46,531 bases of DNA, from positions 1-46,531 of the IMG/VR virus record IMGVR_UViG_3300030095_002983, one strand, 5' to 3'. The notes under the pieces are model-generated. The model was given only the letters and a program-made list of their open reading frames with translations, did not search any database and was not told the DNA's origin. Numbering within the stretch: the stretch's first letter is position 1; each line of letters starts with the position of its first letter. Below, piece after piece: positions 1 through 40,443 of the stretch. Both the position numbers and the translations under genes were made by a program. The stretch comes from a virus (Duplodnaviria > Caudoviricetes).

Positions 1-753
1 TGCACGGATTACTCCGGCAGTCTTCTTCCCATGTGCTTTGTCAGCAAGGAGAGACTTTGCATTCTTCAGGATCTTGGAATAGTTCTTCCAGTTGACACTG
101 TACTCCTCCTCCAACACACCCATCAGCATGTTGTAGTTATCACTGCACAATCCAACAGGAGTCTCGTAGCCAAAGTCGACCACAGCACGAACGTTCTGGT
201 TGGCCTGCGGAGACAGGCTACCATAGTGATTCGTGTAGGTACGACCACGGAAATCCATAAAGCAATCGAGGTAGAAGATACCATCGTTTTCAGCGACAAC
301 ACGCATTGCTTCTTCAGCTTCCCACTCTTCGAGCAGGTTAGCTTCCATGAGTAGCCCAAGCATGTCAGTGTTCACCCGGTAAGGGGTAGCCTGAGCCCAC
401 GCGAGAGACTCACGATAAGCATCAGGCACATTGACATGTACGTTCTTGGACACAAGAGCACGGCGTTCAGCCAGCTCAGGGGGATTGAAGAGCACACGGC
501 CCTCACGGCGTTCCTCAGGACTTGTCAGCCCATTAGATACCATGGTGGCAAAGAGTGCCCGTTCAGCATAGGACGGATCCTGTGCGTACTTACCGGAGCA
601 ATGAACCATCACCGTCTTGCGCAGGGCATTGACGATGTAAGCCTTAGTCCGGCCATCCCACAACATGTTCTTGATCTCCGTGGTGACAGAGATCCCACAC
701 TCACACTCCACACGGGAGATGAGGTCAGTCATCCACTTTTGCATAGTCTGCAT
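1..753 (-). CDS. Single-subunit (T7/N4 RNAPII-like) DNA-directed RNA polymerase, N-terminal part, 3' end off-window
   Basis: Hand-translated; absent from the ORF track because there is no stop in the window. 251 open codons from ATG at 753, after GAAAGGA. Contains AQATPYRVNTDM (cf. T7 QNTAWKIN), FYLDCFMDFRGRTY at 241-255 (DxxGR motif; cf. T7 DWRGRVY) and LSPQANQNVRAVVDF (cf. T7 FNPQGNDMTKGLLTL). Confidence 0.85.
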   Translation of the reverse strand, partial: MQTMQKWMTDLISRVECECGISVTTEIKNMLWDGRTKAYIVNALRKTVMVHCSGKYAQDPSYAERALFATMVSNGLTSPEERREGRVLFNPPELAERRALVSKNVHVNVPDAYRESLAWAQATPYRVNTDMLGLLMEANLLEEWEAEEAMRVVAENDGIFYLDCFMDFRGRTYTNHYGSLSPQANQNVRAVVDFGYETPVGLCSDNYNMLMGVLEEEYSVNWKNYSKILKNAKSLLADKAHGKKTAGVIRA

Positions 754-898
754 AGTAGATTCCTTTCAAGAATATAATTATTACTTACCCAGTAACAAGG
801 GCCAGTACCAACATGGTACCGAAGGCGACCTGCCTCTTGCCGGAGACAGGTCACGAGGAGAAAGTAAACCTATTGTGTCATAATGCGACACAGGTAAA

Positions 899-928
899 GG
901 ATGACACTAGGTTTCCCCAGTGCCATCC
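899..928 (-). terminator. Terminator-like hairpin after the 947..1141 gene
   Basis: Minus strand GGATGGCACTGGG-GAAA-CCTAGTGTCATCC then TTT. G-U pairs work only on the minus strand; GNRA loop. Confidence 0.5.
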
Positions 929-946
929 ATCTCTTCAACTCTCCGC

Positions 947-1141
947 TTACAATCCAGCCTTCAGTCGACGGATTGTCTCTTGCTTAACCTGAGCAGGGCT
1001 AAGCTTATTGCTACGTAGACAATTAATTTCAATTTTATATGATCTAACTGTCTGCTCTAGATATGCTATCTTATTCTCATAGATAGCCTTATCTTTCCTG
1101 AGTTCATCTAACTCAATACGATCATTATGTGATAATGTCAT
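947..1141 (-). CDS. Hypothetical coiled-coil early protein (64 aa)
   Basis: TAATG overlap with the upstream ORF; heptad-like pattern. Confidence 0.6.
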   Translation of the reverse strand: MTLSHNDRIELDELRKDKAIYENKIAYLEQTVRSYKIEINCLRSNKLSPAQVKQETIRRLKAGL

Positions 1142-1470
1142 TAGAATTCACCTCTTTTAAAATGTGCATACGATTCAGGCATCCCCTCACTAAGCCCAAC
1201 TATCCGGTTCAGCATACGCTGATGGTCAGTGGGATTAGAGATAGAGGTAGTCGGTTCCAACATATCACGCATATGTGGATCATTACTAAGCTCACAAATC
1301 AAAGCAAACTCAGCCCGTTTGCAAGCAGCTTCCATAGCCTGTCGACTATTGAACATATCGTCAGGGTTGCGACCGTTCCAGACTACTACCATTATTTCAA
1401 ATGGTACAGGTATCTGATTGGTAGGACTGTTTGCAGTGTAGACCTTTTTGTCTTTCTTAGTATCACTCAT
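1141..1470 (-). CDS. Hypothetical early protein (109 aa, start MSDTKK)
   Basis: GGAG RBS before ATG at 1470; translationally coupled to the next ORF. Confidence 0.65.
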   Translation of the reverse strand: MSDTKKDKKVYTANSPTNQIPVPFEIMVVVWNGRNPDDMFNSRQAMEAACKRAEFALICELSNDPHMRDMLEPTTSISNPTDHQRMLNRIVGLSEGMPESYAHFKRGEF

Positions 1471-1576
1471 TGTGATCTCCAATTGTCTGTGAGAAAAAAG
1501 CAGGTGCTCCTAAGGACAGACAGCCTTAGAAACCTGAAGGAAAACTGGTGTGTGACCACGGTTAGACCCGAGCAGG

Positions 1577-1616
1577 CCACCACTACCAGTACCACCACCA
1601 TCATCACCACCACTAC
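1577..1616. repeat. Low-complexity (ACC/CAC)n intergenic tract
   Basis: ccaccactaccagtaccaccaccatcatcaccaccactac; a related tract lies at about 2811-2831. Confidence 0.6.
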
Positions 1617-1755
1617 GGGTACCAAGTCAGTCAGTCAGTGACGACAGTGGGTCAGCTAGCCAGCTTCGCGAGGAAGCTAGTAGCTAGTTGGCGAATCCCC
1701 CGACTTGCGGTTAGGCAAGACGGGAGGGTGATGGTGTGGCACAGCAGATCAGCTC

Positions 1756-2283: not shown

Positions 2284-2340
2284 GGTAAGAAACTTTCTTT
2301 CTATTTGTAGTTGTAGGGCACTACCACGCCACACCATCTA

Positions 2341-2392: not shown

Positions 2393-2475
2393 ACGGGGTT
2401 GTCCTGCTTCTGCCATCGCTGGCATTTGCTTGCGACTCCTTTCGCTGATTCCCTGCAAACAGGTGGGAAAACCAA

Positions 2476-2927: not shown

Positions 2928-2931
2928 CTGA

Positions 2932-3410: not shown

Positions 3411-3437
3411 CTGCATTGAAGGCTGCAGTGTGCCTAT
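3411..3437 (-). promoter_or_regulatory. 27-bp early repeat, copy 1 (candidate phage promoter or leader)
   Basis: Minus strand ATAGGCACACTGCAGCCTTCAATGCAG, directly before the RBS of 2932..3393. Confidence 0.75.
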
Positions 3438-3488
3438 GGGAATGTCAAGTCACGGCCTGTCGACCGTGCTTGACAGGAGGGATGATGA

Positions 3489-3936: not shown

Positions 3937-3963
3937 CTGCATTGAAGGCTGCAGTGTGCCTAT
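3937..3963 (-). promoter_or_regulatory. 27-bp early repeat, copy 2
   Basis: Identical to 3411-3437; precedes the RBS of 3489..3920. Confidence 0.75.
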
Positions 3964-4017
3964 AGAAAGCTAAGCTACCCCGGCAAGGGTAGCCCAGTGT
4001 TGTGTGGAGTCCGAGAG

Positions 4018-4225: not shown

Positions 4226-4252
4226 CTGCATTGGAGGCTGCAGTGTGCCTAT
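4226..4252 (-). promoter_or_regulatory. 27-bp early repeat, copy 3 (one substitution)
   Basis: ctgcattggaggctgcagtgtgcctat; precedes the RBS of 4018..4206. Confidence 0.75.
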
Positions 4253-4293
4253 GAGAAAGCATCGCTAGGCCGGTAAGCCTAGCGAGGCAGTGG

Positions 4294-4512: not shown

Positions 4513-4525
4513 CACAAATCCTTTC

Positions 4526-4592
4526 AAGGGGGGGTATGGGGGTCATCATCAAAAAATTTTACCTATACCACCCCTTACAAATTCGTGACCCC
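4526..4592. other. Probable genome terminus / late-early junction
   Basis: G7 and G5 runs; inverted repeat aagggggggtat (4526-4537) / ataccacccctt (4565-4576) around A6T4; base composition and gene class change here. Confidence 0.45.
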
Positions 4593-5041
4593 TATCGACC
4601 TTTCACAGCCTGCCCAAAGTAGAACCCAACAATAGTCACAAGAATATTTCTATTCTCAGGAGTAAATAAGAATCCGTCTACTTCAGTAAATATAGTCTTC
4701 TCTTCTGGGAACATCTTCAGAAGATCCCACCATCCGTACATTGTCTCAGTATGCTCCACCACTGTAGTTATCCCGTCATTGAAGGCAATAATAAAAGGAG
4801 CAATAATAGTAGCAAACAGAATGCATATGACAATACAACGTCTAACAAGTTTGCCTCCCGCATCACTGACTCTTTCAGCAGCTTGATTCGCTGAGTCATC
4901 CGATGCCTCTTGAGCTTGAAGTACTCGCATAAATTTTTCTTGTTCATTTTTTCGTTTCTCCGCTATACTCTTAAAGATAAACCCTGTAACACTTCCTGTC
5001 AGCAGGGACAACATTTCAGGATTAAGAAAAGCTGATAGCAT
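4592..5041 (-). CDS. Holin-like membrane protein (149 aa)
   Basis: Hydrophobic segments and C-terminal IVGFYFG, as in 3-TM holin-like families; last late gene. Confidence 0.5.
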   Translation of the reverse strand: MLSAFLNPEMLSLLTGSVTGFIFKSIAEKRKNEQEKFMRVLQAQEASDDSANQAAERVSDAGGKLVRRCIVICILFATIIAPFIIAFNDGITTVVEHTETMYGWWDLLKMFPEEKTIFTEVDGFLFTPENRNILVTIVGFYFGQAVKGR

Positions 5042-5042: not shown

Positions 5043-8000
5043 TTAATTACCTTTATACTTCCCTAACGAAGTAGCCAGTCTTTGACTTGGAGATCCTGTA
5101 ACAGCTGGCACATAATTAGCCACTGTCTTTTGCGGGGGCTCAGGAGCCGCCTGAGGCTCAGCAGGGGCTGGGGTGGCCGAGAGATCAGGGACACGCTCCT
5201 CGAGCGGGGCGAGGGGTTCAGAGCCCATTAAATTGGCAAGGGGCTCTTTAGCCAAAACAGCCAAGCTATCGTATGCCAGCAACTCTGAAGGCCAGATATT
5301 TCTATCAGCAGCAAATTTAACTACACCGGGATTGTTCATGGGATCATCAGGATTCATATAATATGTAATTCCTCCACCACCGTAGCCTCCTCCGCCACCG
5401 CCGCTTCCTCCAGCTTGGGATGGAGATCTTCTTTTTTGTCGCTCTAACTCAATACGTTTCATCTGGGGGGTAGACATATACTGCACAATTGCAGCCTTAA
5501 CTACCTGCTCTTGCAAGAGAGGAAGGGCAGTAATAAGATTCATTAGAGCAAGATTAAACTTAGCATCAGCTTCTGGTCCCTTTTGGAAAGCATACTTACT
5601 TCCATCAAGCACACCTCGAGTCAACAACGATTGAATTCGTTGAAGCGGAACCGGCAAGAATGCTTGGTTTAAAATGTTCTGAGTGTAGCCTTTACCGCCA
5701 GTCAGGGCAATGTATGCTTCAGCCAGTCCAGAAGCAAGTACACCACCCATCATACCAAAGGTTGGAGTTCGACCTAATAAACGAATAATAGATTCTTTCT
5801 TTTGAAGATCCTGTAATAAAATTTCTAATCTATCCTCATCAAGCCCAGTCTTAAATGCTTCTAGTGCAACCATATATAAAATATCCATACTAATAAGATT
5901 TAAAATTCTAGTTGCATTCTGCACAGGACCATAGTATCTTGAGTCATGCCGCAGTCTTTGAGCAAAGAATAATGTTGGATAGGATCTAAAAATTTTCAAC
6001 AGAACTGCATGAGCTTGGTTACTAGTATCCATATGCAAAGGATTACCGCCCACAAACCTAGCTTCAATTTCTCTATTAACATATTCTTTAATTTGAGACA
6101 GCACTTTTAATCGTTGAGCACGAAGCTTTGGATCAGGAGTACGCAAAGCAGCTTCTTGGAGTTGAGCAATATGGGTTAATGCAGTTGCTCTACCGGGATC
6201 AAACTTATCAATTGAACCGTCAAAGATAAATTGTTCTAAGCCCGCAGCACCAACCAAATCATTTAAGTCTGCAAGGAAACTAGGTCGTAAAAGACCCGAG
6301 TTAGCCAAAGCCATAAACACTTTTACATCGTGTCTACCCAAGAAATTAAAATCAGACAAGCCACTAGGACTCTGTTTAAAAATATTTTTGACTTGTTTAT
6401 GTAAATCATTAATATCAGAATTTTCAAAATCTAATTCCATAATCTCTTTACCAGCATCAGTTTGCAAGAAATCTGCCATACGCTTCATGCCGCCACTTTG
6501 AATAAGTTGATTTAAAGTTCTAATTGCTGTGGCTTCAACGCTGTATTTAATTTTGTTGGTAATACCAGAAGATGCTCCGGTAGCTGCTTGTGCTAGCGTT
6601 TTAGGAAGCAAACCAATTGCAGCACCAACCTTATCCATAGTGCTACCAGTTATCAAACTTTCATCATCTTGATTGGTTTCTAAACCTCGGACAGTAGAAT
6701 GAGTATGAGCATATGCTAGCTCAGCCATAGTCATTTTATCTTCAAATGCTTTACCAGCATTTTGATTACCAGCTAATCTACCAAGTTTCATTACACCACC
6801 AAGACCACCGCGTGCCCCACCCTTAAGCATTTCAATTAAAAGTTTAGCGGGTCCAGCAATCATATCGCCTCGTCCAGCCATATTCAAAGCTTGCAAACTA
6901 CCTTCAACAACAAAGGTTGCTAGAGTTAAGTTACCGCCATAAGCAGCAAGAACAAGGTCACTACCAGAAGCTGCGAGACGATTCATTAATCCAAAGGATT
7001 GAGTTTTATCAACACGTTGCCGTCTACCTGCTAAAGTGTCATACTTATTTTTAATTACCTTAAGATGTTCTCTAAGCTCGGCAGTATTAGTCAATGACTT
7101 ATCTCTAGTAACTTGTCTACTTAACCTAGGATCTTTTAGAATATCTCTCGAGCCAGTTTCTAATAATGCATCTAAGATATCATCAAAACGAACGCCTTCA
7201 ATTTCATAATTATTTCCTGCAGCAAGTTTACCTAATGACTTAGTAGCAACAGCATCAAAACCTAAACCTGTAGCAACACCATCCATAAGTGACTCAGGGT
7301 CTACAACAAATGCTCGACTAAGAGCAGAGGTGCCATCTTCTTTATCAGTTTCTTTATCCATAGTTTGAGCCATAAGAGACTTAGGACTTGGTTCAAATAC
7401 CTTATCAACTGCTAAGAATCGAACACCAGTTTGTGCTTCGCGTAAAAATAATGATGCACGGAATCGTGCTGGATTATTGTGAGATGCTAATAACTCTCTA
7501 GCTTCTGCTTCTCCAGACACAACTCTAGAAAACTCCATAAAGATATTAAAGTCTCTATTGTTTCTAAACGTAGCGAAATCTTTATTATTAAAATCACCGG
7601 AGGTAATAGCTTTAATATATTTGTTTTTGTTTTCTGCTTGATTTACAAACTCAACAAGAGGAGCAAAATCTTTAGATTTAAATCCTTGTTTTTGGAAAGC
7701 TTTTTTATACATAGTTCTTAAACCATACTGAAGTAAAAGAATGTCGCTTTGCGACCAGTATCTTGTCTTGCCAATATTCTTAATAGCCTTACCTTCTAAT
7801 CTACGTTGAACTCCTTCAGGCAATGCATCAAACATTAACTGAACAACTTCACGACCCTTGGGATCAGCAGCTAGCTCAATAATTCTATCTACAAATTCTT
7901 TCTGTTTGTCTTTAGGTAAAGAGTCAACATCAAATTCATTAGAAGTAATTTGAAGTGGTGGCAACAAACCAGAAGCAAATAACGTAATAGGATCAATAAC

Positions 8001-11000
8001 ATCTCTCATTTTAGTTCGGATATTTGTTGCGATATCTTTAGATAAAGCATCTTCAACAACCTCATAGTTATTACCTTCGGCTAAGAATTGATGATTAACC
8101 CTTAAAGGTGTCGCATCATACTCTAGATTTTTATACAAAATTCCTACATCTTTTGCTAACCCAATAATGTCATTAAAGACTTGTCGCATATCTTTAGCAA
8201 CTTGATGCACAGCTTCTTCGCCTTCTCGTGGTTTCATTTCTGGATTAGAAATGTATTCCATAATTGTTGGGAACTGTTCTGGTTTAATATCAGAACGTAA
8301 CAGTTGCCCTCTGAGGAATGCCATTTGATTATCAATGTCTTGCTTAGATCTTAGTAAGTCTTTAGATCCTTCTGGATTAATCATATGCTGCGTCATTAAA
8401 ATTTGTTGGTCAATTGCAAGAGATAACTGAACAGCCAGATCATATACAGAGTCATACGTTGACTGGTTTTGTGATGGACCCAAAGTAAGACCGCTATAAG
8501 TATTATTATTCATAGCTAAGCGATCTCCGAACGATCTAAAAATAGTACCATTATTTTTTCTCATGTTTCGTAAAATAACAGCCATAGCTACATCTGGCAT
8601 TTCTTTTAAGGCTTCAGAAATATCTACAACAACAACACCATCACTTCTTGTTCTAGAGAAATCACTTAACAAAGATTGCTCCATTTGATATGCTTCTAAT
8701 CTACTTACTCTAAAGTCATCGGTTGTATTGTGATCTTCTAAGGCAGATTCTTTCTCAACAATCTTATCACCAAGAGCACTCATTTCTTTATCGGTTATAG
8801 TTTTACTATCACCAAGCTTAGCTTGTTTATCTCGTTCAGCCTTAAGTTCATTAAGCTCTTCAACTTGAGTACCAAACTCTTCATCGCTAATTGGATCAGG
8901 TGGAGCTTTCTCATCGTGGTAGAACATGTAAGAATTTTTGTTTGCCTTGGTATTAATCCTACCCTGAATAGCACCTGAGTTATCAACAACCACACCTACA
9001 GCTTTTAATGACATCTCTCTTAACTTAGCCAACTCTGCTTTGGTTTCATCAGTCTTGTGGTGCTGCTCTAACACTGCAACCATAGTTCTAATACCATTAC
9101 GAGCCAAATTAATTTGACGATAGATAGCCGCTCTAAATCTATCAATAAACTTTAATTTTTCTGCGGACTCACCATCGCGAGCTTCCAGCTGTCCTTCAGC
9201 TTTACTTAAGATATCTTCAATCTCAGTATTAGCTTCACTCATCCAATACATTGCTGCAGTTTCTGCAATAAATTCTTCTGGTTTACGCATGTAGTGTTGA
9301 TGTCTTTGAACGGCATCTGCAGAAGAACCAGCATTAATAGCTTTAGTTAATTGGTAAACCAAACGAGATACACTTCTATTCTGCATCATATTACGAATTT
9401 CATTTAACTCAGTAGAGCTATCTTGTAAGTCATAATACTTAAACGTACCAACGTGTACTAATTCGTGGACAAAAATCTTAGCTGCAGTAAGAGGATTCTT
9501 TTTGCCATCTGCAGTACTTAACTCGACCAGATACTTGTCACCGTCAGGAATAGATAAAGCACGGCTTTCTTTTGATCCAAAGTTAAACTCAATCTTATGT
9601 AACAACTCTGGATTCTTAACTGCCATACGAGATACAACAGCCAGAATAATATCCGCTGTCTCTTTAGTAATAAACCCGTCTTCAACTGCAGTTAAAACTT
9701 TATCCTTAAACAAAGACCCTTCAATAGTTTTTGTAAGATCACCTTTTGTTTCTGCCGCAGTAATAGGATAGGTAGTAGGCTGATTACGATCCATCATGCT
9801 ATCAATAAATGCATCATCTGCTCGCACAGCATCCATTAGTGCTTGTTTAATGGTAGGCAAATCTTCAGGAGTAAACTCAATACCAGAGTTTCTAAGGTAC
9901 TCTTCAAACTTAGATTCTAATACGTCTGTGAGTTCACCTTCCATTTCAAAAGGATTCTCTGCAAGATTCATTACAAATCCTCGAGCATGATCATAGTATG
10001 GATTAGCTTCGCCCGTAGTAATCATTTCCTTAACCATCTCTAACTCACGAGCTAATTCAGCTGTCTTAACAACTTCATCATCTTGCAATACTTCGTTAAG
10101 CAAAGGCATTCGTCCATCAGCATCAGGTCCAATAATACCCAAAGATAAATAAGTTTGGGCGATAAAGATTTCTAAACCAGTAGCAGATCGTAATACCTCA
10201 CCCTTAGAATCTAAGACAGGAAGTCTGTTTGGAGTTACGTTGGGATCGTAATGACTAATCATAAATCCAAGAACACGCTGTCTATTTAAAAGTTCTGTGC
10301 CAATATCAGTTCCTTTTCTAGCAACAGTATCAGCTAACTTAATTAAAAGCTTGGCTGATTTAGACATTTCAGGATTATCAAAAATTCCATACTCTTGCAT
10401 ACCTTTGATAGTTGCATTGAATGCATTGGTATACATGCCTAATCCAAAGTCTGTATCGTTTTGAGTTTCGGTATAATCAAGATATATAGCTTGATCTGTT
10501 GATCTTCTGGTAGGCACATTACGTTTTTTAGGTAACTGTCTATTTCTACGCTCTAATCTAGCCAGCATAGATCTATCTCTACCACCCACAACTACATTTA
10601 AATCAGTATCAAGTTTAGTAGTAATAGTATTAGAACGACGAACATGATACCGTTGAGAGATCATTTCCATAGCTTCAGCATGAAGCTCATCACGCAATCG
10701 CTTATTGGCAAGTCGCTCGCCACTCATTGCATCAACTTCATCTAAGCGTGTGCCTCTAGACTTAGTTCTATTAATACCGTCAATGCCAGTATGAGCAGTG
10801 TCAGTAATTAAATCTAATGTATCGCTATTCTGAATATTCATTAAAGCTTGTCGAGCCTGAGCCATAGTTAATTGAATACGACCTGTAGTTCCCCGGACTT
10901 GGCTTTCAGTATTAATCTCACCAGTACCCGGAACAATAGCTCTCTTTGATCCAGAAGCATTAGGATCAGCTAAAGTTTCTCTTAAACTGTGCTCATCACC

Positions 11001-14000
11001 TACATGTCCAACAAAGACAGTGTTAGCAAGGCTAGCAATATTTTCTTCACCAAGACTATTTTCATCTTTTATCAATGTATCCATAATAACAAAAGCATCG
11101 CCAATAGTTAAATACTTACCATAGATAGCAATCTTAGCACCGAACTCATTAACTGTAAGCGGATTGCCTTCTTTGTCTACGAGCTTATACTTATTAATAG
11201 TATTTTGTGCAATAGCTTTACCCTTAGGATGTTTTTGCAAAAACTCCATGGTAATTTGTTTTTCAAAAATAGTTGTTAAAATATGAGCAGCATCAGCACC
11301 GTGAATAACTCTAGGTTGATCTCTACTATCTTTAATAATAAAACTAGCTTTTGAAAACTCGTTTAATGGGATTCCTTCAACAGGCGCAAGAGCAGTAACT
11401 GCACCTAGGTTATTAAGTTCGTTACGGAGAGAACTTAAAACTTGCCCAATATTTTTTTGTGTGCCGTCTGTATTTCTAAGAACGTGTCTACTCATCATAC
11501 TAACATTGCCACCCGGAGCAAACTGCATGGTAGATTGTTCAGCACTTCTATTATCAACCGCTCTACGGTTAACCTCGCGAAGCTTAGCATTAATTAATCT
11601 ACGATAGTAGTGAGTAATTCTTTCGGTTTCTCTGGTTCGTTCTTCGTTCGTTAACTCTGAACTATGCAACGCAGACAACTCTTGATTCATACGTTGAGTG
11701 TACCGCTCTCTAATAGTATGAGACTGCCTGTAATAATCAAGATCTTGCCATCTTCCCTCTTTAACCAAATCCATTAAACCATGTTGATAAGCAAAATTAA
11801 TCAAAGTGTTTTCTAATTGATATGAGAAGTTTAAAATATTCTGTTCTGGGCTAGATCTTTCAAGACCTCCCATAGTATCTTGTTCTCGAGCAGGATACAT
11901 AAGATCAGCTTCATCAGTGCTAAAAGAATTATCAGTTAAGTTTTTATCAGATAAATCAGTTGACTTAATCATTCGTGCTGCGTCATCGGACAATAACTCA
12001 GCATTTTCTTGGAATTCATTAAGATCCTTAACCTTAGTTTTAATTAATCCAGCACGAAGCATTGATCTTTTAATTCGATCTGCCTTTAACTCAGGTACCC
12101 CAAGATTTCTAAAAGAGTGTTGGAATGCTTTAGGCAACGCACTGTTAATGCCATAGTTTTGTCCCATTTTTTCTAAACGTTCTTCTAACTCTTCAACAGT
12201 TTTAGACTCAGCTGTTAACTCTTGTGGATCCATGCCATCTTCTGTAATAGCTCGGTATAAACCAGCATTAATTTTAGCTTGAGCTTTTTCAATATCACTA
12301 AGATCTTCACCAGCATCTCTTCTTCGTCTTGTTTGACCTTCAACTACTTTAAGATTTTGATAATATTCTAACCACTGTTGCATAAACAAAGTGTCTCTAT
12401 TTTCTCTTTGCTTTTTGCTTAATTGATTTTCAGGAGTTAAAGAAGCAATAACTGTTTCATATAAAGTTATCTTTGTTGGATCTGTTTCAGTCTTTAAACG
12501 TTTTTCAGCTAGTTTAATAATAACATGATCTTTATTTGTAATAGTATTACCGGATCTAGACATAATATATCTAGCAAACATCTCTTTAGCTTTAGTTATA
12601 TCAACCTCATTGCGACGGTTTACAAACACACCTAAAGCAAGCAGTGGTTCATCGGCATCAATACCTTGGTTTTGTGCTCCCTTTGGACCTTGGTGAGTAC
12701 CAGCATGTTCTGTGCCATACCATCTACCAGCGTAAGAGTCTCTGCCCATTCCGCGAAATGTATTATTATTTGCATAATACTTTTCTAACGTACGACGCAT
12801 ACTAGGATCCATTAAAGATACACCCATAAACTCAGTCAACACATCTAACGCAGTAAAGTCAATAGTTCTACCAACTTGATTCATTCCTTGAACAGCTCTA
12901 AATAATCCCCTACGGCTTTCGTCTTCAACTGCTTTATCAGCTAAGTCTTGAATCTCTGCAGCCTCTTCTCGGGTAATACCCATATTAAGATCAGTTTGAA
13001 TATGTCTAATAATACTATCAAGATTTTTAACAGGATCTAACTTATCTCCAACCTTTTCTTTACGCAAGTTGCCTTGATCATCTAAGTATGGTTTGAGTTC
13101 ATCAAAGTTTTTCCAATCGGTCTTTTCTTCGGTAAGAATAATTCTAATTACTTTAGCAAGCTGAGCTTTTTCAGCATCGCTTTTAAAAGTTAACAGAGGG
13201 CCGCTGCCATCAGGATTCTTTAAGGTCAGATTATCTAAACCTTTAATTGCTCTTTCTTCAAAGAACTGAACCTGTTTATCAGTAGCAGTTTTAATCATCT
13301 TTGTAATTTTTGTTTTAATTTTTTTATACTGTGGAGTACCCGGATCATAACCCAGTCTTGTAACAATTAGATCTTCAATCAAACGATCTCTCATTTGAAT
13401 TTGGAAGGCTAAATTGTTTACACTAATATTTTTTAATGGGTCTGAAACATCTAAAGTGTTGCCTAATGCTGTTTGAATAGCTTCCATGGCTTCTTGATTA
13501 AAGCTATTTGCATCCATTCTCTTACGCATTTCAGCCAAAATATCTTCCATAACTTTACGATCACCAACAATTCGCCCCATAATAGAAGTTTCTTTAGCCT
13601 CAGCCATACCATTAAGAGCGAGTTGTCTTTCGTGCATACCAAAACCTAAAGACAGTCTAACCAATGGCAAAGCAATACGGCGGGCGTTAGCCTTACTTAC
13701 ACCCTCTTCTTCTAAGAAGTTAAAGAACTCTTGAGAAATAGTTTCTCTACCCGCTCCATACAGGTGAACCATCACAGGCTGTTTAAAGAAGTCTCTAATC
13801 TTGCCTAACTCTCCACCCTTGTTTAAATTTTCAGGTGTAAAAGTATCTGCATAAGTTTCTTTTGATAAGGTTTTCGGCAGCAATCCTACCTCTTGCATAG
13901 CTGTAATAGTGTTAAGTGCATTTTGTTTTGCAACTCCACTGCCGTTGTATGCAACATTAGCTAACTGCATTAAAACATCATGAGCCACCTTTACATAGTA

Positions 14001-27646: not shown

Positions 27647-29341
27647 TTAAACTCTCCTTCCCCATTGCATTCGACCAGTTTTCCCCACTCGTTTGGGCTG
27701 GTTCTTTTGATAAATCTCATCATGATGCCTCAAAGCACCAGATACTCTAGAGCCAAGTAAGCCCTCGATACGCTTGTCTGATTGCCACATTTCAATTGTA
27801 TCTATATGTGCCTTTTCTCTTCTTTTTTGAATAACATTATCTACATTAACATGTAGTCTTTCTTCCCAATACATACAGGCAGCTGACAGCACATCTACAC
27901 GGTCATCGTGTGTAAGGCTACCACGGCGGTCTGTAAGCCGTGTGAGCTGCCTCTGGTTCTTTTCATCCCTAGCGGGCTTCTTATCGAACACAAGCCTGTG
28001 CTGGGCCATTGTAGGCTCCAGAGCGGCAAGCATTCTGCGTTCCTTCTGACCAGTCACCCGATACTCCTCAATGGCTACCTGCCCACATATCTCTGTAATG
28101 ACAGGTCTTAAGAGGGAATTAAACATAGCATCACCATAATTAGATTCAATTCTAACATGATTAACCTCATATTCATAGGCCAGTTTACTAATTTTTTGTA
28201 GGGTTGCTCTATCATAGCCTCCCTCTAAGCCCAATAATTCGTGAACAAAGATATACCCATTACTAAAACTAGCAACACATACACCAGTCTCATCTTTACC
28301 TCGACCAGAGGGGTCTACAAACATTACCCTGTCTTGATATTCTACAAACTGATTGGATATCCACATTGGATTATAGATACAATCACCCGACATACCAAAG
28401 GATGGGATCTTTCTATTAGCATCTGAAGTAGCCCAGACAATTTTTTCTGGTGCCATATCCGGGCTGACATCTAATACAATAAGATCTTGTAGCTTAAGAG
28501 GGTACTTGTCTTTATCAGCCAGACTGGTGTCTAGTTTGTAATGGAGACTGAAGAGCGTGGGTCCGACTTTTGCTTGACGCTCCATCAATGTCTCCATACT
28601 AAATCTTTCTGGCTGTGTAGGATCTCCAGCTTCAAAGCCTTGCTCAAAGATCCACGGGGAAACATCCTCACACTCAGATTCTACATTCTTGTTTGGCATA
28701 ATCGCAGGGAACTTAACCACTGGGTAGCCTGATTTTAATTGATTGTAGATACTATCCTTGATCTGAGGAGTGCCAAGAAAGATAACGCGCCCACCCACGT
28801 TTCTGATTTGCTCAGCTTCAAGACACTTGTTAAGCAGCTTGTGCCGAGTCACCGCTGTTTCGCAGTTACCTTCAATCTCTACGTCATCAAAGATAAGATA
28901 CTCTGCGTGCGACCCTGTGATCTGAGCAGTAATACCCTTGGCATAGCAGGACTTATCCTGCCCGATACGAGTTCTAGACTCTACATTAAAGCCAAAGGCG
29001 TTGTCGGTTGTATGATCTCCGGGTCTAAGATGTTCACAATAAGGAACAAGATCTAGAATTCTACGGGTCATACTAATAAACTCTACCGCTTTGTTGCCGG
29101 TAGCAGACACAACCATGATGGTTGAGTTGTGATCCCGTACAAGGAACCACGAGGCCAGACAGGCGGTGATAACAGATTTACCGAACCCCCGCCCAGCTTG
29201 GAGCTGCATGTCGTTAGGGCCGTTCTGAAGAGCATCTGCCATGGCGTACTGTACAGCTGTAGGTTCGCCCAAACCTAGATATTTAAAACACGCCCACAAA
29301 TGATTCCTAAAATCATCTTTCATTTCCTGTGGTATGTCCAT
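27647..29341 (-). CDS. terL: Terminase large subunit, T7 gp19-like
   Basis: Walker A QAGRGFGKS, ITGSHAEYLIFDDVE (Walker B), FLGTPQ, and nuclease motifs DPSGRGKDET and HDDRVD. Confidence 0.95.
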   Translation of the reverse strand: MDIPQEMKDDFRNHLWACFKYLGLGEPTAVQYAMADALQNGPNDMQLQAGRGFGKSVITACLASWFLVRDHNSTIMVVSATGNKAVEFISMTRRILDLVPYCEHLRPGDHTTDNAFGFNVESRTRIGQDKSCYAKGITAQITGSHAEYLIFDDVEIEGNCETAVTRHKLLNKCLEAEQIRNVGGRVIFLGTPQIKDSIYNQLKSGYPVVKFPAIMPNKNVESECEDVSPWIFEQGFEAGDPTQPERFSMETLMERQAKVGPTLFSLHYKLDTSLADKDKYPLKLQDLIVLDVSPDMAPEKIVWATSDANRKIPSFGMSGDCIYNPMWISNQFVEYQDRVMFVDPSGRGKDETGVCVASFSNGYIFVHELLGLEGGYDRATLQKISKLAYEYEVNHVRIESNYGDAMFNSLLRPVITEICGQVAIEEYRVTGQKERRMLAALEPTMAQHRLVFDKKPARDEKNQRQLTRLTDRRGSLTHDDRVDVLSAACMYWEERLHVNVDNVIQKRREKAHIDTIEMWQSDKRIEGLLGSRVSGALRHHDEIYQKNQPKRVGKTGRMQWGRRV

Positions 29342-29505: not shown

Positions 29506-29718
29506 TTAAGACTCCGCAATCTTAAAGGGAGCTGCCGATGCCATTGCATTCTCAATCTCCTTGATGGTATTTTGAGGAAGGATGTTGATATCTTCCTTGT
29601 GGTCATTGATTACACCACGAACTACACCATACAATCCGGGTCCACGGATAGTAGGATCATTAAGATCTTCAATCAATGCATCAATCAACATTTCTTGTAG
29701 CTGTTGTAACTTACTCAT
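29506..29718 (-). CDS. terS: Terminase small subunit, T7 gp18-like
   Basis: LIEDLNDPTIRGPGLYGVVRGVINDHK resembles gp18; size and position before TerL. Confidence 0.7.
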   Translation of the reverse strand: MSKLQQLQEMLIDALIEDLNDPTIRGPGLYGVVRGVINDHKEDINILPQNTIKEIENAMASAAPFKIAES

Positions 29719-33820: not shown

Positions 33821-36800
33821 TTAATTCTGTCCTGATCTATAAGTTTGTTTGAATACGCCTTTAAATTCAATATGAGTAATATTACAAGGCGTGTAATGGT
33901 CACTCTCAATAAACACTTTCATGTGTTCCGAATTGCCAAATATTTTTGACATAAACTCACCTTCACTAGAGATAGCAACAGGAGAATCTAATACGGATTG
34001 GTTGTACAAATCTTCTTTGTACGATGGATTTCGTTTAGTTGTGACACTAACCGTATCCTCATTGCCTCTACGTTCAACGCGGATGTTGTACTTCCCAGTA
34101 TCTAAATATCGTGTAGTAAGAGTTCTAAGATTTAATGCACCATCAACAATACTTTGATCTTTCTCTCGAACAAACTGGGGAGACAATTCAATCTGCATTG
34201 TATACGGTGCGCCCACATAGACACCCTTGGTTCCACCACTAGCGGATGCAAATAAAAACCCCTGATCATCAGTGGGTCCTACTACTTGCGCAATAGAACC
34301 TTGAGCTTCGAGTTCAGTAGGTGTAGTTTTAATAAATCCTTGATCTTCGGTAACAGCAAGAATATCATCTAGCTTTCCTTGAACTCTCAATCTAGTTTTT
34401 TTACCGGCTTCTGTGGTATTCACACAAGAAATTGATCTCCCAGTATACTCGCCGTACCCCGCACCAAATACAATAGTATTAGCATTGGCATCTTGATATG
34501 GAAGAATAAAAGTAGTAGTATCAAATGTAGGTGAAGTTACATCGCTATCATACTCAATATTAAATACTGTATCACTATCTGCAGGAATCTTTTGATCTGG
34601 CTCAAGAAAATGTAATCTATCTAATCTAGGGATATCAGTATCAACAGTCTCTAAAAACGTACGTTCTACAAAATAATAATCCTTAATTGAACTATTTTTC
34701 TTATTGAACGGTCTACTGGTAACTGCATAAAAGTAATTATCGAATACTTCTGTGCTTAATATAGACATATCAGTATCAAAAACATACTTAGATAAAGAGT
34801 TTTGTGATATTCGATCACCAGCAAATCTTTGAGTATACATGTAGAGTTCGTTTTTATTATCTGCATCTACCATCAACAGGCTATCTTGAGCCGGAGCTCT
34901 AGCAATTGCACCAAAGTTAGTAGGAAGATATCCTTCCGCATGCGTAGTTGTTTCTACTGCTTGAGTTACATTGCTTTGATTAGCAGTAGAGTAATACAAG
35001 TAAATTTTTTCTGGTGCAAAGAAGTAAATCTGGGATCCTAATAGCTGAGGTTGTGAGATAGGATCAGAAGAATAGAATGTAGTAGGAGATAACTCTGCAG
35101 TAAAGGGAGTAATCTGGTTTTCAGAACCCTGTAATTCAAACTGAATATCATTATCAGTATTTACAAACAGAAAATCATAAAAGGGAATCATAGAATTAAT
35201 CTTAGACACCTTATCTAAAGACGATCTTACATCAATCATATCAACGTCAGTTATTGTACCCGGATCGGTAAGGAATACATTAAAGAAATTGTTAAATTCT
35301 GATGAAAAAATAGTATCCCCGATAGCAAACCACAGTCTGTTACGCCATGTAGTGATAGAAGTAATCTGTTGCCCTACTCTTTCATTAGCATTAGCTGCTA
35401 TAAATGGGCTAGGACCGGGGTTATTAGCTAAACCACCAGATTTTCTTGGTTGCCATGATGGTGTAATCATTTTCCATATACCAGTTGACACATTAAAATC
35501 AAGAATAAGAGGCCATGTACGCTCATCCAGTACAGAGTATCTATCTTCAGCTCGAACAATTTCGTAATAAGGATTACCTTCGTCGGGTTCATTAACCGCC
35601 CTGTAAAATCCCGGAGTAAAATCAAAAAATCTTTCACGACATTCGTATACTTTGCCCCTACCCTTTTGAGATTTGGTCGCAGAGGTAGTTAAAGTGCCAC
35701 CTTCATACAAGGAATACAAAGTGTCGCTGGCACTATTAGATTTGATTGTATCGTTTTCTTCTGTAGGTACAGGAATATTTTGAAATGATACAATGGATTG
35801 GCCTAAATCGGTTTGTTGAGATATATTAAAGTTTTTATCTTCTACCACCAACTTGCGATTACGCAAAGTATTCTTTAAACCCAACAGTTCAGCAAATCTA
35901 CCTTGTTTTAAAGTCTCACCATCCCCTTCAAATGGAGCCGTTGCTACTACATCAATAACTAAAGCAGTTGATTTACCTTCATCACTTGGATTTCCGTTAG
36001 AATCTACCTCAATTTTCATAATCTTAACGCCAACAGAGTTATCACCAGCATTACCAGCCTTAACACGTTTGTTGTTATCAGAATAATATAAACCATACTG
36101 CTCATTTGATGCAGTAAATATTTTATCATCTAAATCTTTAAGCATACTGTCAGCTTCAATACCAGATGTTTCAATATTAGCCACAATTTGATTGCCTTGA
36201 ATTGTATTATTAGTTACATTAACAACCTGTTGTCGAACAATAGCAAAATTGTTAATTCTGTCCACTGTAATTAAAGCATTACCCTCTTCGTCCGTCAATT
36301 CACTAAGTTTAGTACTCTCATTAATTGTACGAAGTGATTTAGAATTAGAATTACCAAGCCCCAAAGCTTCTACAAAGTTTTGATTGCCCACATGACCCGT
36401 ATTAAAGTTTTCATGAGTAGCTAGAAGCGTCAGTTTTTCTTGACTATCATCCACAATGTTTAATTGATTGGTAGCAGAGTCAATTAATAACGTAGCATCT
36501 GCACCCGACTCTTCAATAATAGTTTTTAAATCACCAATAGTTTTAGTATCGTCTGTAACACAGGTAATATTTGAACCAATGCCAGTAACTTCAGCACCTG
36601 ATACAGTAATTCCTGTTGCACTAAAAAATGTAATTGGTCGCAGCTTTTGGGTAACCTTTAAATCACTAAGAGAAACATTTCCTGCAGACAGTCCTAATCC
36701 TGTAGAGTTAGGTTCTAAATTAGTATCAAACTCGTTTAAATCTACGCTATATTGTACAGAACCTCGGCTAATAAAAAACCTATCTGCAAAATAAGTATCC

Positions 36801-38032
36801 CCAGAAACAGCTACACTAGGATCTTTAGCATTACCAACAATAGTTGAGCTAGCCTTGTTATTAATAAGGTGCATATTAGGACCAGCTACTTCGGTTTCAC
36901 TACTTGCACTGGGTACATCACCTAAGAATAATTTTTCCAAGGGCTTAGTGGTAAGATCTGCCAGCTTAGTAGTTTCCAATACAGGCACAAGATTCTTACC
37001 AACCCCATCTCCTACGGAGGCTGACCGATAGTTTAACTTGCGTCCTTTAAAATCTTGAGTGTATAAGTTTAAAGCAAACCTGTACGTTTGAGTTGTATTA
37101 ATAGGATAGCTGCCTGTAATAAGATCGGTATCATCAAGTTTAAATTCAAACCGATCATTGCCTGCTTTAAATTTATTTACAGAAAAACTACAAACATCTG
37201 AATCATCAGAAGCATCTGTTACAGTTAGCTCTAACAAATAGGGATTGACACCAAATTTCATAGCTGAATTAAAACCAAATAGGGTAGTGTCTACAGCTAT
37301 CCCTTGACTATCCGTAAGAATAAACTTATCAAACTGATTCTCTTCTAATTTTACTTTAAGTCTGTGTGTATTTGTATCCGTAGCAGAAAGAGCTAAAGAT
37401 GTAAACTTATTATTGTTAATATCTCTGGCAATATCATCTCGGTATCTAGCAGATACTTGTTTATTTAAAAGAATAATAGCACTACCAAACAACGCAAAGT
37501 CAAAAGTATCCATCGCACTTTTTAAATTTGGATTTTCCGTGATATAGTTAAAATGATTTAAGGTAACTGAATCATAATCAAAAGATTGCAGATCCATTCT
37601 CTTATTTGTTTTGTTTAATTTCCAAACTGTAATAAATTTTCTCTTCTCATCTTTAGTTAAAATAGAAGAGTTATCTAAACTTAAGGTGTAGTTAATACCA
37701 ATTAGAAATCTATTGTCTGAATCAATTGAAATCCATTTAAAAAGAATATCATCTTCAGCAGTAGGCTGATATCTAGTTGTCCCATCACTTAGTAAGTTAA
37801 AAAGAAGAGAGCCCGGAGCTGGTAGATCATCCGTGCCCGTAGACTCTTCTCCATAGAACAAATCACTACCCGCAATAAACTCTAACGCTGGTCGTTTTTC
37901 TACAGATTTTTCTAAAGTAACAAGACAGTTATTTAAATTTTCTGCTTCAGAAGGCAAGCGTTTATTGCTAGCCTGCCGCCCCACGCCGCCAGATAAAGTT
38001 GGAATAGCAATTCTTTTATGCGTTACGGTCAT
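33821..38032 (-). CDS. Tail tubular protein B (nozzle, T7 gp12-like) with a large internal insertion (1403 aa)
   Basis: IPTLSGGVGRQ...KRP N-terminus, WRNRLWF, FFNVF, C-terminal ITHIEFKGVF; follows tube A. Confidence 0.9.
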   Translation of the reverse strand: MTVTHKRIAIPTLSGGVGRQASNKRLPSEAENLNNCLVTLEKSVEKRPALEFIAGSDLFYGEESTGTDDLPAPGSLLFNLLSDGTTRYQPTAEDDILFKWISIDSDNRFLIGINYTLSLDNSSILTKDEKRKFITVWKLNKTNKRMDLQSFDYDSVTLNHFNYITENPNLKSAMDTFDFALFGSAIILLNKQVSARYRDDIARDINNNKFTSLALSATDTNTHRLKVKLEENQFDKFILTDSQGIAVDTTLFGFNSAMKFGVNPYLLELTVTDASDDSDVCSFSVNKFKAGNDRFEFKLDDTDLITGSYPINTTQTYRFALNLYTQDFKGRKLNYRSASVGDGVGKNLVPVLETTKLADLTTKPLEKLFLGDVPSASSETEVAGPNMHLINNKASSTIVGNAKDPSVAVSGDTYFADRFFISRGSVQYSVDLNEFDTNLEPNSTGLGLSAGNVSLSDLKVTQKLRPITFFSATGITVSGAEVTGIGSNITCVTDDTKTIGDLKTIIEESGADATLLIDSATNQLNIVDDSQEKLTLLATHENFNTGHVGNQNFVEALGLGNSNSKSLRTINESTKLSELTDEEGNALITVDRINNFAIVRQQVVNVTNNTIQGNQIVANIETSGIEADSMLKDLDDKIFTASNEQYGLYYSDNNKRVKAGNAGDNSVGVKIMKIEVDSNGNPSDEGKSTALVIDVVATAPFEGDGETLKQGRFAELLGLKNTLRNRKLVVEDKNFNISQQTDLGQSIVSFQNIPVPTEENDTIKSNSASDTLYSLYEGGTLTTSATKSQKGRGKVYECRERFFDFTPGFYRAVNEPDEGNPYYEIVRAEDRYSVLDERTWPLILDFNVSTGIWKMITPSWQPRKSGGLANNPGPSPFIAANANERVGQQITSITTWRNRLWFAIGDTIFSSEFNNFFNVFLTDPGTITDVDMIDVRSSLDKVSKINSMIPFYDFLFVNTDNDIQFELQGSENQITPFTAELSPTTFYSSDPISQPQLLGSQIYFFAPEKIYLYYSTANQSNVTQAVETTTHAEGYLPTNFGAIARAPAQDSLLMVDADNKNELYMYTQRFAGDRISQNSLSKYVFDTDMSILSTEVFDNYFYAVTSRPFNKKNSSIKDYYFVERTFLETVDTDIPRLDRLHFLEPDQKIPADSDTVFNIEYDSDVTSPTFDTTTFILPYQDANANTIVFGAGYGEYTGRSISCVNTTEAGKKTRLRVQGKLDDILAVTEDQGFIKTTPTELEAQGSIAQVVGPTDDQGFLFASASGGTKGVYVGAPYTMQIELSPQFVREKDQSIVDGALNLRTLTTRYLDTGKYNIRVERRGNEDTVSVTTKRNPSYKEDLYNQSVLDSPVAISSEGEFMSKIFGNSEHMKVFIESDHYTPCNITHIEFKGVFKQTYRSGQN

Positions 38033-38778
38033 GATGAATGTCTCCAGAATCTAAATCTACTAGGATCATAGATACTGTTTGAGTTTTTACTAATAGCTCG
38101 CTTAACAGCATTGTCTCCAGAGCTAAAGATATTTCTTGCTTTATCATTTGCATCAGCAGCTCTACCTTTAGCGGTAAGTATACCCGCTCTTTCAGCAAGC
38201 AGCCTGTCAACATCTCTATCACCCTGCACAAACAACTGATATTGTCTAGAAGCAGAAGCAGCAATACCTTTTTGAGCACTAGTCTCTAAGTCCTTAAACT
38301 CTATATACTCTACAATACTAACAGTAAGCTCAGTATCGGTATCCCATTCATCAGTATTATCTGTAACATTATATAAAACATTATAATCAATACCATTGGA
38401 CTCAATTCCAAATCTTCTAGGAGCAGCAGTTACTCTAATATCTACAGTAGGACTGCTGATACTGGTAAGAAGTTGAGCAGAAATCAAAGATCCAGTAGTC
38501 ATCTTTTCAGTATAAGGAGATAATTCTATACGTCCCTTAGCGGCATCAGAAATAGGTTTTACATTATTACCTGTAGGGCCGGTTCGAGATGGTGTAACTT
38601 TAATAGGTCTTCTATTAACAGCCATACCTCGCAATTGAGTTTCTAAAGTAGCTTGATCCAAAACAAACTCAGCCAAGTTAACATCAGTATTCTGACTATC
38701 GGTGAGGCTGGTTACAATCTGTTCACCAGAGTTAAATAACATTTCATTTACCGCATCAAGTTTGCTCATTAGTCCCAT
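38029..38778 (-). CDS. Tail tubular protein A (adaptor, T7 gp11-like)
   Basis: SKLDAVNEMLFNSGE and ASRQYQ motifs; position after the capsid gene. Confidence 0.9.
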   Translation of the reverse strand: MGLMSKLDAVNEMLFNSGEQIVTSLTDSQNTDVNLAEFVLDQATLETQLRGMAVNRRPIKVTPSRTGPTGNNVKPISDAAKGRIELSPYTEKMTTGSLISAQLLTSISSPTVDIRVTAAPRRFGIESNGIDYNVLYNVTDNTDEWDTDTELTVSIVEYIEFKDLETSAQKGIAASASRQYQLFVQGDRDVDRLLAERAGILTAKGRAADANDKARNIFSSGDNAVKRAISKNSNSIYDPSRFRFWRHSS

Positions 38779-38793
38779 TAGAATCTCCTTTTT

Positions 38794-38827
38794 AAAAGAC
38801 CCGAGGCCCCCTTTCGGGGGCTCCGGG
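38794..38827 (-). terminator. Tphi-like intrinsic terminator after the capsid gene
   Basis: Minus strand CCCGGAGCCCCC-GAAA-GGGGGCCTCGGG-TCTTTT. Confidence 0.85.
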
Positions 38828-38850
38828 CGAATGTGTATTTAATTGTCAAA

Positions 38851-40443
38851 TTAGGTAGCGGCGGTTCCCAGACCATCAGCACCACCAAGGGTACCAAAGA
38901 CGGACATATCACCAGCCTTGGTGTACTCAAGAACCATAGGGGTAGTGGTAGGTGAAGTACCATTACCAAATCCAACATCTTGATTTGAGTCATCCACATC
39001 ACCATCGCCATTATAGTCAGCGTGGGTAGCACCCAAGCTAACCTGATACATGTCTCTCACGAGAGCATCAGCAGCGGATTGCGTAGCAGCACCAACAATA
39101 TCCTTGTCGACAGGTGAACCGTTAGGATCAACTTCATAGCCATCCAGATCGTTGGTCGTTGCGTTAAACTCAAAGAAACCAATCTTCTGATCAGCACCCA
39201 AACCACCAGTGCAGGAACCCTTAAAGGCTTCCTTAGCATCAGTTTCGCCTAGATAACTACCAGCAGTTCTCAAGTCATGAGCAGGTCTACCAATGCAGAC
39301 AGCAGCGTGTTCTGGCTTCATAACACCAGTACCACCCATCATCGAAGCAACCGTGAACACGGTGTTACGACGAACGTCATCAACTTGATCAACCTTAAGA
39401 CCCATCATCTTGAGCGAAGCAACACAGCCTTGCTGCCAGATCAGAGCCTTAACAGGACAAACATTGCAGGTTCTGTTATAACGAGCTTCACCAATGGTGT
39501 GCAGGTTATAGTTCTTGTTAGGCAAGTGGTTCGTCTTGATGATCGTGCAGCCTTGATATTCAAGACGATCAGCAAGGTTGAACATACCTTGTCCTAAGCC
39601 AGCACCTAAGCCACCAGCATCGGCAACACCGCCGAAGAATGGTCGACCAGCACCACCAGCAAGATCAGAGCTGTCACGAGCCACACCAAGAGCACGGATG
39701 TCTTGGAAGGTACGAGGTTCAACAGCACAGAAGACACCCTCAGTAGGAGCATCAACTTCTTGCAGACGGATTTGGAACTCTTCAATCTTCTCAAGAAGCT
39801 TCAGAGCAGCATTAGTACGAGCAGCAGCGGAAGAGGTTGAGCTACCAAGATCATCAAACAACTTGTTACAGAAAACCTTACCACCCACGCCACCGATAGC
39901 CGAGAAGCCTTCAGCGGTTGCAGTAGTGCGGTCAAATCTGTTATCAAGTGCTCTAGGATCGTTAGCAAGTCCATCTTCAGCAGCAGCACGAGCAATGTAC
40001 AAACCGAGCTGACGGTCACGAGCATCCGACAGGGTACGACCAGCTTGGCGTGCAAGCTCGGAACGATACTCCCATTGAGTGAGCATGAGGTCAATGTTGT
40101 CTAACTCGAAGTGAGTAGCGATAGGACGCTTATCAAGAGTCACACGGAAAGTGGTAGCAGCACTGTCGTTATCTCCGACCAGTTCTTCACCAGCTTGCCA
40201 TTGTGGATTCAAGTTGACATATCCGGTAACTGGGAATTCCATAGTAGTACCGGAAGCAATGGTACGAGATTCGACCATTGGCTCAAAAATATTATACTGG
40301 TCGTAAGCATGAATAACTTCGCCAGCCCAAATAGGAAGGACAAGCCGACCGTCACCCGTAGTAGGGTTATTAAAAGAAATGCCACCATCAAGGTTAGCAC
40401 GGTAGGCTAAATTACCTACACCTAAATCTCCAACTGCAGCCAT
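38851..40443 (-). CDS. Major capsid protein, T7 gp10-like, with an in-frame C-terminal extension (530 aa)
   Basis: WAGEV, RTIASGTTMEFP, EYRSELARQAGRTL...D, IIKTNHLP, GTGVMKPEHA. Confidence 0.93.
   Translation of the reverse strand: MAAVGDLGVGNLAYRANLDGGISFNNPTTGDGRLVLPIWAGEVIHAYDQYNIFEPMVESRTIASGTTMEFPVTGYVNLNPQWQAGEELVGDNDSAATTFRVTLDKRPIATHFELDNIDLMLTQWEYRSELARQAGRTLSDARDRQLGLYIARAAAEDGLANDPRALDNRFDRTTATAEGFSAIGGVGGKVFCNKLFDDLGSSTSSAAARTNAALKLLEKIEEFQIRLQEVDAPTEGVFCAVEPRTFQDIRALGVARDSSDLAGGAGRPFFGGVADAGGLGAGLGQGMFNLADRLEYQGCTIIKTNHLPNKNYNLHTIGEARYNRTCNVCPVKALIWQQGCVASLKMMGLKVDQVDDVRRNTVFTVASMMGGTGVMKPEHAAVCIGRPAHDLRTAGSYLGETDAKEAFKGSCTGGLGADQKIGFFEFNATTNDLDGYEVDPNGSPVDKDIVGAATQSAADALVRDMYQVSLGATHADYNGDGDVDDSNQDVGFGNGTSPTTTPMVLEYTKAGDMSVFGTLGGADGLGTAAT

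Follow-up and report, generated by a model that had tools for sequence, protein, structure and literature searches.

The window analyzed here, the whole 46,531 bases of record IMGVR_UViG_3300030095_002983, is the incomplete genome of an uncultured marine phage (Caudoviricetes) and encodes a giant protein of 4045 amino acids (aa) that contains a module resembling RNA polymerases (RNAPs). Judged by sequence identity to a listed member, the window is a member of AG-10.1, a T7-like marine subgroup of the Autographiviridae that has already been published (PMC12361551). On balance, the evidence favors a phage of this group whose close relatives encode a compact and a canonical RNAP and whose giant, likely injected, carries the probable third RNAP, which would transcribe the genes that enter the cell first. 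Under such a scheme infection may start without host RNAP, making early transcription host-independent, and the whole would most likely be N4-like at its first step and T7-like at its last.

A more specific proposal is tentative, and we hold it with a little less than even confidence: the injected enzyme would have been built into the ejection protein in the slot of T7 gp16 independently of N4, its palm would have the motif order C-A-B-T, and it would act in a three-step AG-10.1 cascade run by phage enzymes throughout. The same tentative standing attaches, jointly with that cascade, to the idea that the order C-A-B-T, which is not obtainable by circular permutation of T7 RNAP, is a new topology for the superfamily. 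If true, a widespread group of marine phages would have a function for its largest gene, which its describers called unclear; the N4 solution of an RNAP riding in an ejection protein would exist on a T7 chassis too; and the catalytic blocks of a T7-family polymerase could be reordered without loss of function.

The RNAP-like module of the giant protein

The module and its key residues are encoded on the minus strand, which is the coding strand of the window genes:

12318..15140, minus strand: RNAP-like module, aa 694-1634, recognized from five invariant residues, segment profile matches and phrog_414
14553-14555, minus strand: Asp889 of the HD pair, motif C by profile
14193-14195, minus strand: motif A Asp1009
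13782-13784 and 13758-13760, minus strand: motif B Lys1146 and Tyr1154
12723-12725, minus strand: T-like Arg1499

The phrog_414 match in the window giant is weak (E 1.3e-5, aa 1069-1234), and the same family is matched by the giants of relatives G001, G002, and G005. Nineteen relatives were retrieved, eight of which are rated at least 90% complete. An alignment of the module comprises 12 full-length rows and 9 fragments, the full-length rows being mostly 13-17% identical to the window protein. Seven columns are invariant in all 12 full-length rows (G732, D889, D1009, K1146, Y1154, G1219, and R1499), and H888, P851, D1073, and Y1075 are kept in 11 of them. D1009, D1073-Y1075, and K1146 with Y1154 are read as motif A, a subsequent DxY element, and motif B, respectively. 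No acidic column downstream of motif B is conserved among the 12 full-length rows. Asp1494 in the post-finger segment was considered as motif C and dropped, since conservation of this residue is confined to the window clade.

Segments of the module, chosen by motif anchors, were compared as profiles with a T7-family alignment, the E-values being pairwise. The HD segment matches T7 residues 806-833, corresponding to motif C (E 0.058), the A-B segment matches T7 622-647 (E 0.0086), and the post-finger segment matches T7 316-443 (E 0.0026), a region that lies before motif A in T7. Five other segments, serving as controls, gave E-values of 0.24-0.86, and each score was reached in 0 of 40 column shuffles. 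Because the three segments map to T7 in this way, the apparent motif order of the module is likely C-A-B-T, as against T-A-B-C in T7 and N4. The catalytic set of the superfamily (Asp of motif A, Asp of motif C, Lys and Tyr of motif B, and Arg of motif T) is present, the assignment of D889 to motif C resting on the segment profile match, and the T-A-B-C order of the superfamily apparently is not. To judge from these residues, the module is probably an active polymerase.

Several results weigh against a reordered, working enzyme. The segment E-values are modest and pairwise, for segments picked by motif anchors, and the two AlphaFold models of the module are of low confidence: the mean predicted local distance difference test (pLDDT) scores are 46.5 and 55.7, and the segments predicted to form the palm score below 50. 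No match was returned when the module was compared with PDB sequences and with GenBank phages, or the window giant with Pfam, and the Atlas score of the giant, 0.88, is a lead only. PF00940 (RNA_pol) matches 2 of the 21 alignment members, that of the window excluded. A profile of 13 canonical RNAPs missed the giants and the N4 virion RNAP (vRNAP) alike and is too insensitive to count. An earlier, sequence-based reading of this DNA, the original prediction, had named a putative packaged RNAP; what stands is an RNAP-like giant, probably packaged, with its weak phrog_414 match and invariant catalytic residues.

A different account, which we consider unlikely, keeps the giant as an ejection protein but gives its RNAP-derived module another task, namely to grip or pull DNA or to make short primers; the early block would then be transcribed by host RNAP, as happens in T7, and the compact and canonical RNAPs would take over afterwards. 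The active site of the module has no structural or PDB support, in keeping with such a role, and the module is undetected in 2 of 15 giants. Against it, the residues kept in every full-length row are the catalytic ones. Evidence from candidate promoters, which also bears on this account, is given below.

Probable ejection genes and the likely genome end

The giant lies at the end of a series of long genes, followed by a conserved motif:

27020..27646, minus strand: 208-aa protein, putative gp14-slot ejection protein, no cysteine
21763..27009, minus strand: 1748-aa protein, putative gp15-slot ejection protein from its position, no cysteine
17191..21750, minus strand: 1519-aa protein, equal to the N-terminal part of the fused 5327- and 5139-aa giants of G001 and G002
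5043..17180, minus strand: giant protein in the gp16 slot, 4045 aa from the likely ATG at 17180 (the frame 5043-17219 has 4058 aa)
4592..5041, minus strand: 149-aa gene, the last late gene of the window, phrog_38283
4520..4592, minus strand: conserved G-run/C-run junction motif at a step in GC content, likely genome end or packaging signal

By analogy with T7 and N4, the giant is probably a gp16-slot ejection protein and likely injected, because it is the last of a 208-aa, 1748-aa, and giant triplet of rising size, is nearly free of cysteine, and contains an HExxH motif. There are 0, 0, 1, and 1 cysteines in the 208-, 1748-, 1519-, and 4045-aa proteins, compared with 21 in an 888-aa fiber-like protein, 6 in the nozzle, 8 in the capsid protein, and 11 in the terminase large subunit (TerL). 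All 15 giants above 3500 aa have 0-4 cysteines, and T7 gp15, T7 gp16, and N4 vRNAP have none. The HExxH motif, at aa 2585 of the window giant, occurs in 10 of the 15 giants and also in N4 vRNAP, just after the RNAP domain. In schitoviruses, the vRNAP is described as the third ejection protein (PMC13434306). A homolog of the 208-aa protein precedes the long genes in 13 relatives, and the 1748-aa protein has no family match in Pfam and PHROG searches. As a lead only, clusters of viral hypothetical and structural proteins are matched by the C-terminal part of the giant at a score of 0.96, LPD39/LPD38 being the nearest named Pfam families.

The giant is split in some phages (1519 + 4045 aa in the window, 900 + 4138 aa in G008) and fused in others (5327 aa in G001, 5139 aa in G002), and identity between the 1519-aa protein and the N-terminal ends of the giants of G001 and G002 is 42-48%. 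The strong ribosome-binding site in front of the likely ATG at 17180, together with the similar split in G008, suggests that the 1519/4045 division is a natural fission; given the same two observations, a sequencing error is unlikely. In the G008 giant, a stretch at about aa 625-800, ahead of the RNAP-like module, has the look of a 3'-5' exonuclease or RNase H-like domain.

GC content steps from 0.39 to 0.51 at ~4.55 kb. The G-run/C-run motif at this step follows the giant in 12 of the 20 records examined, and the contig of G005 ends within the motif and begins with its own GC-rich early block. The junction is thus likely to be the genome end, the window being a permuted assembly, and the GC-rich block would therefore enter the cell first. 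The 149-aa gene that abuts the motif in the window has a different location in G005 and G020.

A GC step of this kind is also the feature that favors a chimera, in which a GC-rich early region has been joined to an unrelated AT-rich T7-like genome, and the original prediction had singled out ~4.55 kb as the place where its reading might fail. Such a chimera is exceedingly improbable. The alignment of the window with G001 is unbroken across 4255-7452 at 71.7% identity, several relatives have the same gene order and GC step, and 4.55 kb is bridged by contigs from three runs in two studies, the best of which may be the source of the window itself. The window is accordingly not chimeric at this point.

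Compact and canonical RNAPs and the early region

Beyond the GC step lie about eight small genes, including those led by three repeated cassettes, and then the truncated RNAP-like frame:

4226..4285, minus strand: cassette 1, hairpin 4285-4262 and 27-bp block 4252-4226, ahead of a 62-aa gene (4206-4018)
3937..3997, minus strand: cassette 2, hairpin 3997-3970 and 27-bp block 3963-3937, ahead of a 143-aa gene (3920-3489)
3411..3480, minus strand: cassette 3, hairpin and 27-bp block 3437-3411, ahead of a 153-aa lysozyme-like gene (3393-2932)
1..753, minus strand: compact single-subunit RNAP, N-terminal 251 aa, the gene being truncated at the contig end

The second, compact RNAP of the original prediction is a real RNAP gene, of which only 251 aa are present; motifs A, B, and C lie outside the window and are seen only in relatives. 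The 251-aa piece is 90-94% identical to sequences in four IMG/VR contigs. In close relatives the full-length protein, a single chain of 590-594 aa, includes all four motifs (T, A, B, and C), and compact RNAPs of relatives match phrog_414 (E 1e-45) as well as mitochondrial and T7 RNAP chains (E 2.5e-13 to 4e-8). Relative to T7 RNAP, the lengths of the palm, fingers, and specificity loop are kept, ~85 residues replace the first 265, and 30 replace the 81-residue thumb. Compact RNAPs of 480-600 aa would be some of the shortest RNAPs made of one chain, with possible value as tools.

A canonical T7-type RNAP, with the full 812 aa, is encoded ~5 kb downstream of the compact RNAP in G001, G002, and G003 (phrog_414 E 9e-153). 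To count two polymerases, as in the original prediction, is therefore to undercount, since the relatives also carry this family-defining enzyme past the point where the window ends. A quick RNAP tree with long branches, built without the giants, groups 13 canonical enzymes in a single clade beside T7 and puts 11 extra enzymes on long, unresolved branches; the origin of the compact RNAPs is not resolved by this tree.

All three RNAP-type genes are found in five of the eight relatives rated at least 90% complete (G001, G002, G005, G014, and G019, the canonical gene of the last spanning two frames). The G019:C1 record, of 82 kb, contains two TerL genes (4483-6141 and 70916-72613, 52% and 64% identical to that of the window) and, with its canonical RNAP in two frames as well, may be chimeric.

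Part of this evidence tells against a cascade of three phage RNAPs. The canonical RNAP of the window itself would lie outside the contig and is placed there from relatives. The compact RNAP, without most of the N-terminal domain and thumb, may therefore need a cofactor. Among the eight more complete records, no RNAP-like module was detected in the giant of G012, no compact RNAP in G016, and neither in G020; the compact RNAP went undetected in G013, G015, G016, and G020, so that the set is not universal.

Such gaps would suit a shorter cascade, which we think quite improbable, in which the giant is an active injected RNAP acting directly ahead of the canonical RNAP and the compact enzyme is a fast-changing accessory. 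The extra RNAP is reported in 23 AG-10.1 members, against 48 AG-10.1 table rows (PMC12361551), and compact RNAPs range from 483 to 710 aa on very long tree branches. The compact RNAP of G006 (L033) is only 35% identical to that of G001 beside genes that are 91-96% identical, a comparison that points to the compact RNAP being exchanged or fast-evolving. Opposed to an accessory role are the intact motifs T, A, B, and C in the compact RNAPs of the window clade, G005, G006, and G007, and the constant place of the gene between the early cassettes and the canonical RNAP; non-detection may, moreover, reflect divergence.

The repeated hairpin and 27-bp cassette of the original prediction exists in three real copies ahead of early genes. 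Each 27-bp block sits behind a different GC-rich hairpin and ~20 bases ahead of a ribosome-binding site and start codon, and three copies were reached in 0 of 20 Markov-shuffled early regions. The upstream hairpins have G-T closing pairs on the coding strand and two of the three are called terminator-like; they therefore look like RNA hairpins that end the previous gene. The block has a 5-bp stem of its own, kept in G002, and a template-strand loop containing G-N-A, where N is the position at which two independent variants differ; this makes the block a weak lead for a non-canonical hairpin promoter. In two runs, position 3436 is joined to 4571, on a 30-base side; the joint skips 1134 bases and would remove the first two cassette genes, so that genes may also be swapped at the block. 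This joint and loose ends at 3894 and 4260 reflect variant strains whose cassettes have different genes or hairpins. The 153-aa gene behind cassette 3 (2932-3393, minus strand) has a Destabilase/lysozyme-like match below cut-off (PF05497, E 0.003) and homologs in the early regions of G001, G005, and G007.

The promoter search yielded points against the favored cascade as well. Canonical template-strand GNA-triloop hairpins of the N4 kind number 0 in the early region of the window, versus 3 in the N4 control and 3 in G005. The 27-bp block is present as a single copy in G001 and G002 and was not found in six other relatives scanned, and no repeated late promoter of T7 type was found in the window clade. 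The missing N4 hairpin would fit transcription of the early block by host RNAP, as would the 11 sigma-70-like sites in 700-5100, where 5.1 +/- 2.5 are expected. Within the early block, however, only 2 such sites are on the coding strand, both 9/12 matches, and none is at its start.

The motifs of G005 fall into three classes, namely a repeat in the early region, a pair of identical hairpins with a GAA triloop, and a T7-like motif of 20 bp. The two hairpins, of N4 type on the template strand, lie in G005:C1 1-2932, and the early motif recurs at 4499 and 12636. The 20-bp promoter candidate occurs on the plus strand of G005:C1 at 13574, 26620, 46893, and 69149, one copy adjoining the canonical RNAP gene upstream; G007 has one identical copy, and the window has weak look-alikes only.

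In the favored reading, with the injected giant as a third RNAP, the gene order of the window and its relatives (early cassettes, compact RNAP, small genes, canonical RNAP, replication, structure, giant) would be expressed stepwise. First, with the 4.55-kb junction as the genome end, the GC-rich block would pass into the cell ahead of the rest. Second, the 208-aa, 1748-aa, and giant proteins would form an ejection channel, as do T7 gp14-16 and the products of the N4 gp50 operon. Third, the C-A-B-T module of the giant would transcribe the cassette genes and the compact RNAP gene, with the 27-bp block as its likely promoter and the upstream hairpins as RNA terminator or processing elements. Fourth, the compact RNAP would transcribe the following block, including the canonical RNAP gene; and fifth, the canonical RNAP would transcribe replication and late genes, as in T7.

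Relation to AG-10.1, T7 and N4

Placement of the window in AG-10.1 rests on identity to a listed member, G002, rather than on a tree. G002 is the closest near-complete relative (67 kb) and is 91% identical in TerL, 64% in the capsid protein, and 94% in the part of the compact RNAP that the window holds. G002, G005, G012, and G019 are listed as AG-10.1 in the tables of PMC12361551; G001, G014, and G020 were not found in its supplementary table rows. The group as described there has a large protein of 3274-5566 aa in all members, with PF00940 in only four of these proteins, RNase_H in eight, and a function that is called unclear; an extra RNAP of ~650 aa in 23 members, placed after the large protein and before the typical RNAP of ~800 aa; and large genomes that lack an SSB gene, mostly 63-71 kb among 30 of its 48 table rows (PMC12361551). 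The window agrees in its large protein (4045 aa, corresponding to 5139-5327 aa when fused in G001 and G002), in an extra RNAP between the large protein and the typical RNAP (251 aa in the window, a whole gene in G001-G003), and in its T7-like structural module. The lineage fitting neither known group, as originally predicted, thus gives way to a published one, in which large protein, extra RNAP, and typical RNAP are already described in that order and the closest near-complete relative of the window is a listed member; an architecture belonging to a described group was one of the outcomes that the original prediction itself had given as refuting it.

What is already in print, then, is the AG-10.1 group and its two shorter RNAPs. 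In PMC12361551 the large proteins are located ahead of the RNAP genes, in a region described as variable; the sections covered here neither identify them with ejection proteins or with virion RNAPs nor comment on the order of the motifs or on the end motif. The literature searched, which most subscription papers lay beyond, gave no virion RNAP and no rearranged RNAP for AG-10.1, and nowhere in it was the giant interpreted as an injected, reordered enzyme.

Schitoviridae such as N4 use a cascade in which vRNAP gp50 is followed by RNAPII (gp15 + gp16) and then by host RNAP with N4SSB, and T7-like phages use host RNAP for early genes plus one phage RNAP. Like N4, the present system has a giant, nearly cysteine-free RNAP-bearing protein in the third ejection slot, with HExxH after the RNAP domain, and a small second RNAP that ends the early block. 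Unlike N4, the giant has no sequence match to vRNAP gp50 in the GenBank phage or PDB sequence searches and is apparently ordered C-A-B-T rather than T-A-B-C; where N4 has a two-subunit RNAPII, the second RNAP is one polypeptide of 590-594 aa that includes motifs T, A, B, and C; late transcription would fall to a phage T7-type RNAP; the head, the tail, and TerL are of T7 type; and the window lacks the canonical GNA hairpin. The scaffold, tube, nozzle, and TerL are like those of T7, the relatives' canonical RNAPs cluster next to T7 in the quick tree, and the three cysteine-poor genes of rising size resemble T7 gp14-15-16. The differences from T7 are two extra RNAP-type genes, a protein of 4000-5700 aa in place of the 1318-aa gp16, a TerL gene that precedes the ejection genes, and the lack of a strong host promoter cluster at the start of the early block.

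On the minus strand, small genes are followed by genes for scaffold, capsid, tube, and nozzle, two tail-type genes, the probable terminase small subunit, and TerL, after which come the 208-, 1748-, 1519-, and 4045-aa proteins, the 149-aa gene, and the GC step. The T7-type capsid, scaffold, tail tube, and terminase genes of the original prediction are borne out by family matches for each, all on this strand, and with the nozzle they amount to the structural set of the Autographiviridae:

40610..41503, minus strand: T7-type scaffold protein, PF05396 (E 2.6e-9) and phrog_1052
38851..40443, minus strand: major capsid protein, phrog_267 (E 1e-21)
38029..38778, minus strand: tail tube or adaptor, T7 gp11-like, PF17212 (E 3.9e-13) and phrog_446
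33821..38032, minus strand: tail nozzle, T7 gp12-like, PF25675 (E 1.3e-58) and phrog_457
29506..29718, minus strand: probable terminase small subunit, PF11123 (E 1e-4, below the curated cut-off) and phrog_1351 (E 0.001)
27647..29341, minus strand: T7-type TerL, PF22530 (E 5e-33) and phrog_38

The 40 best GenBank matches listed for TerL are autographiviruses, at 35-41% identity. Sequencing runs that best hold the window are marine wherever labeled, and host predictions for three AG-10.1 members have scores of only 0.14-0.21. Relatives L009, L011, L029, and L034 have 2-5 tRNA genes, always including Leu(taa) and Arg(tct), which match the AT-rich late genes; the window has 0. The capsid protein of the window (38851-40443) has 530 aa, compared with about 390-500 aa in relatives. 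Upstream of the scaffold gene, a cluster of small basic genes (44918-45831, minus strand) has matches of the DUF6321 and DUF5872 types, which are found also within larger phage proteins.

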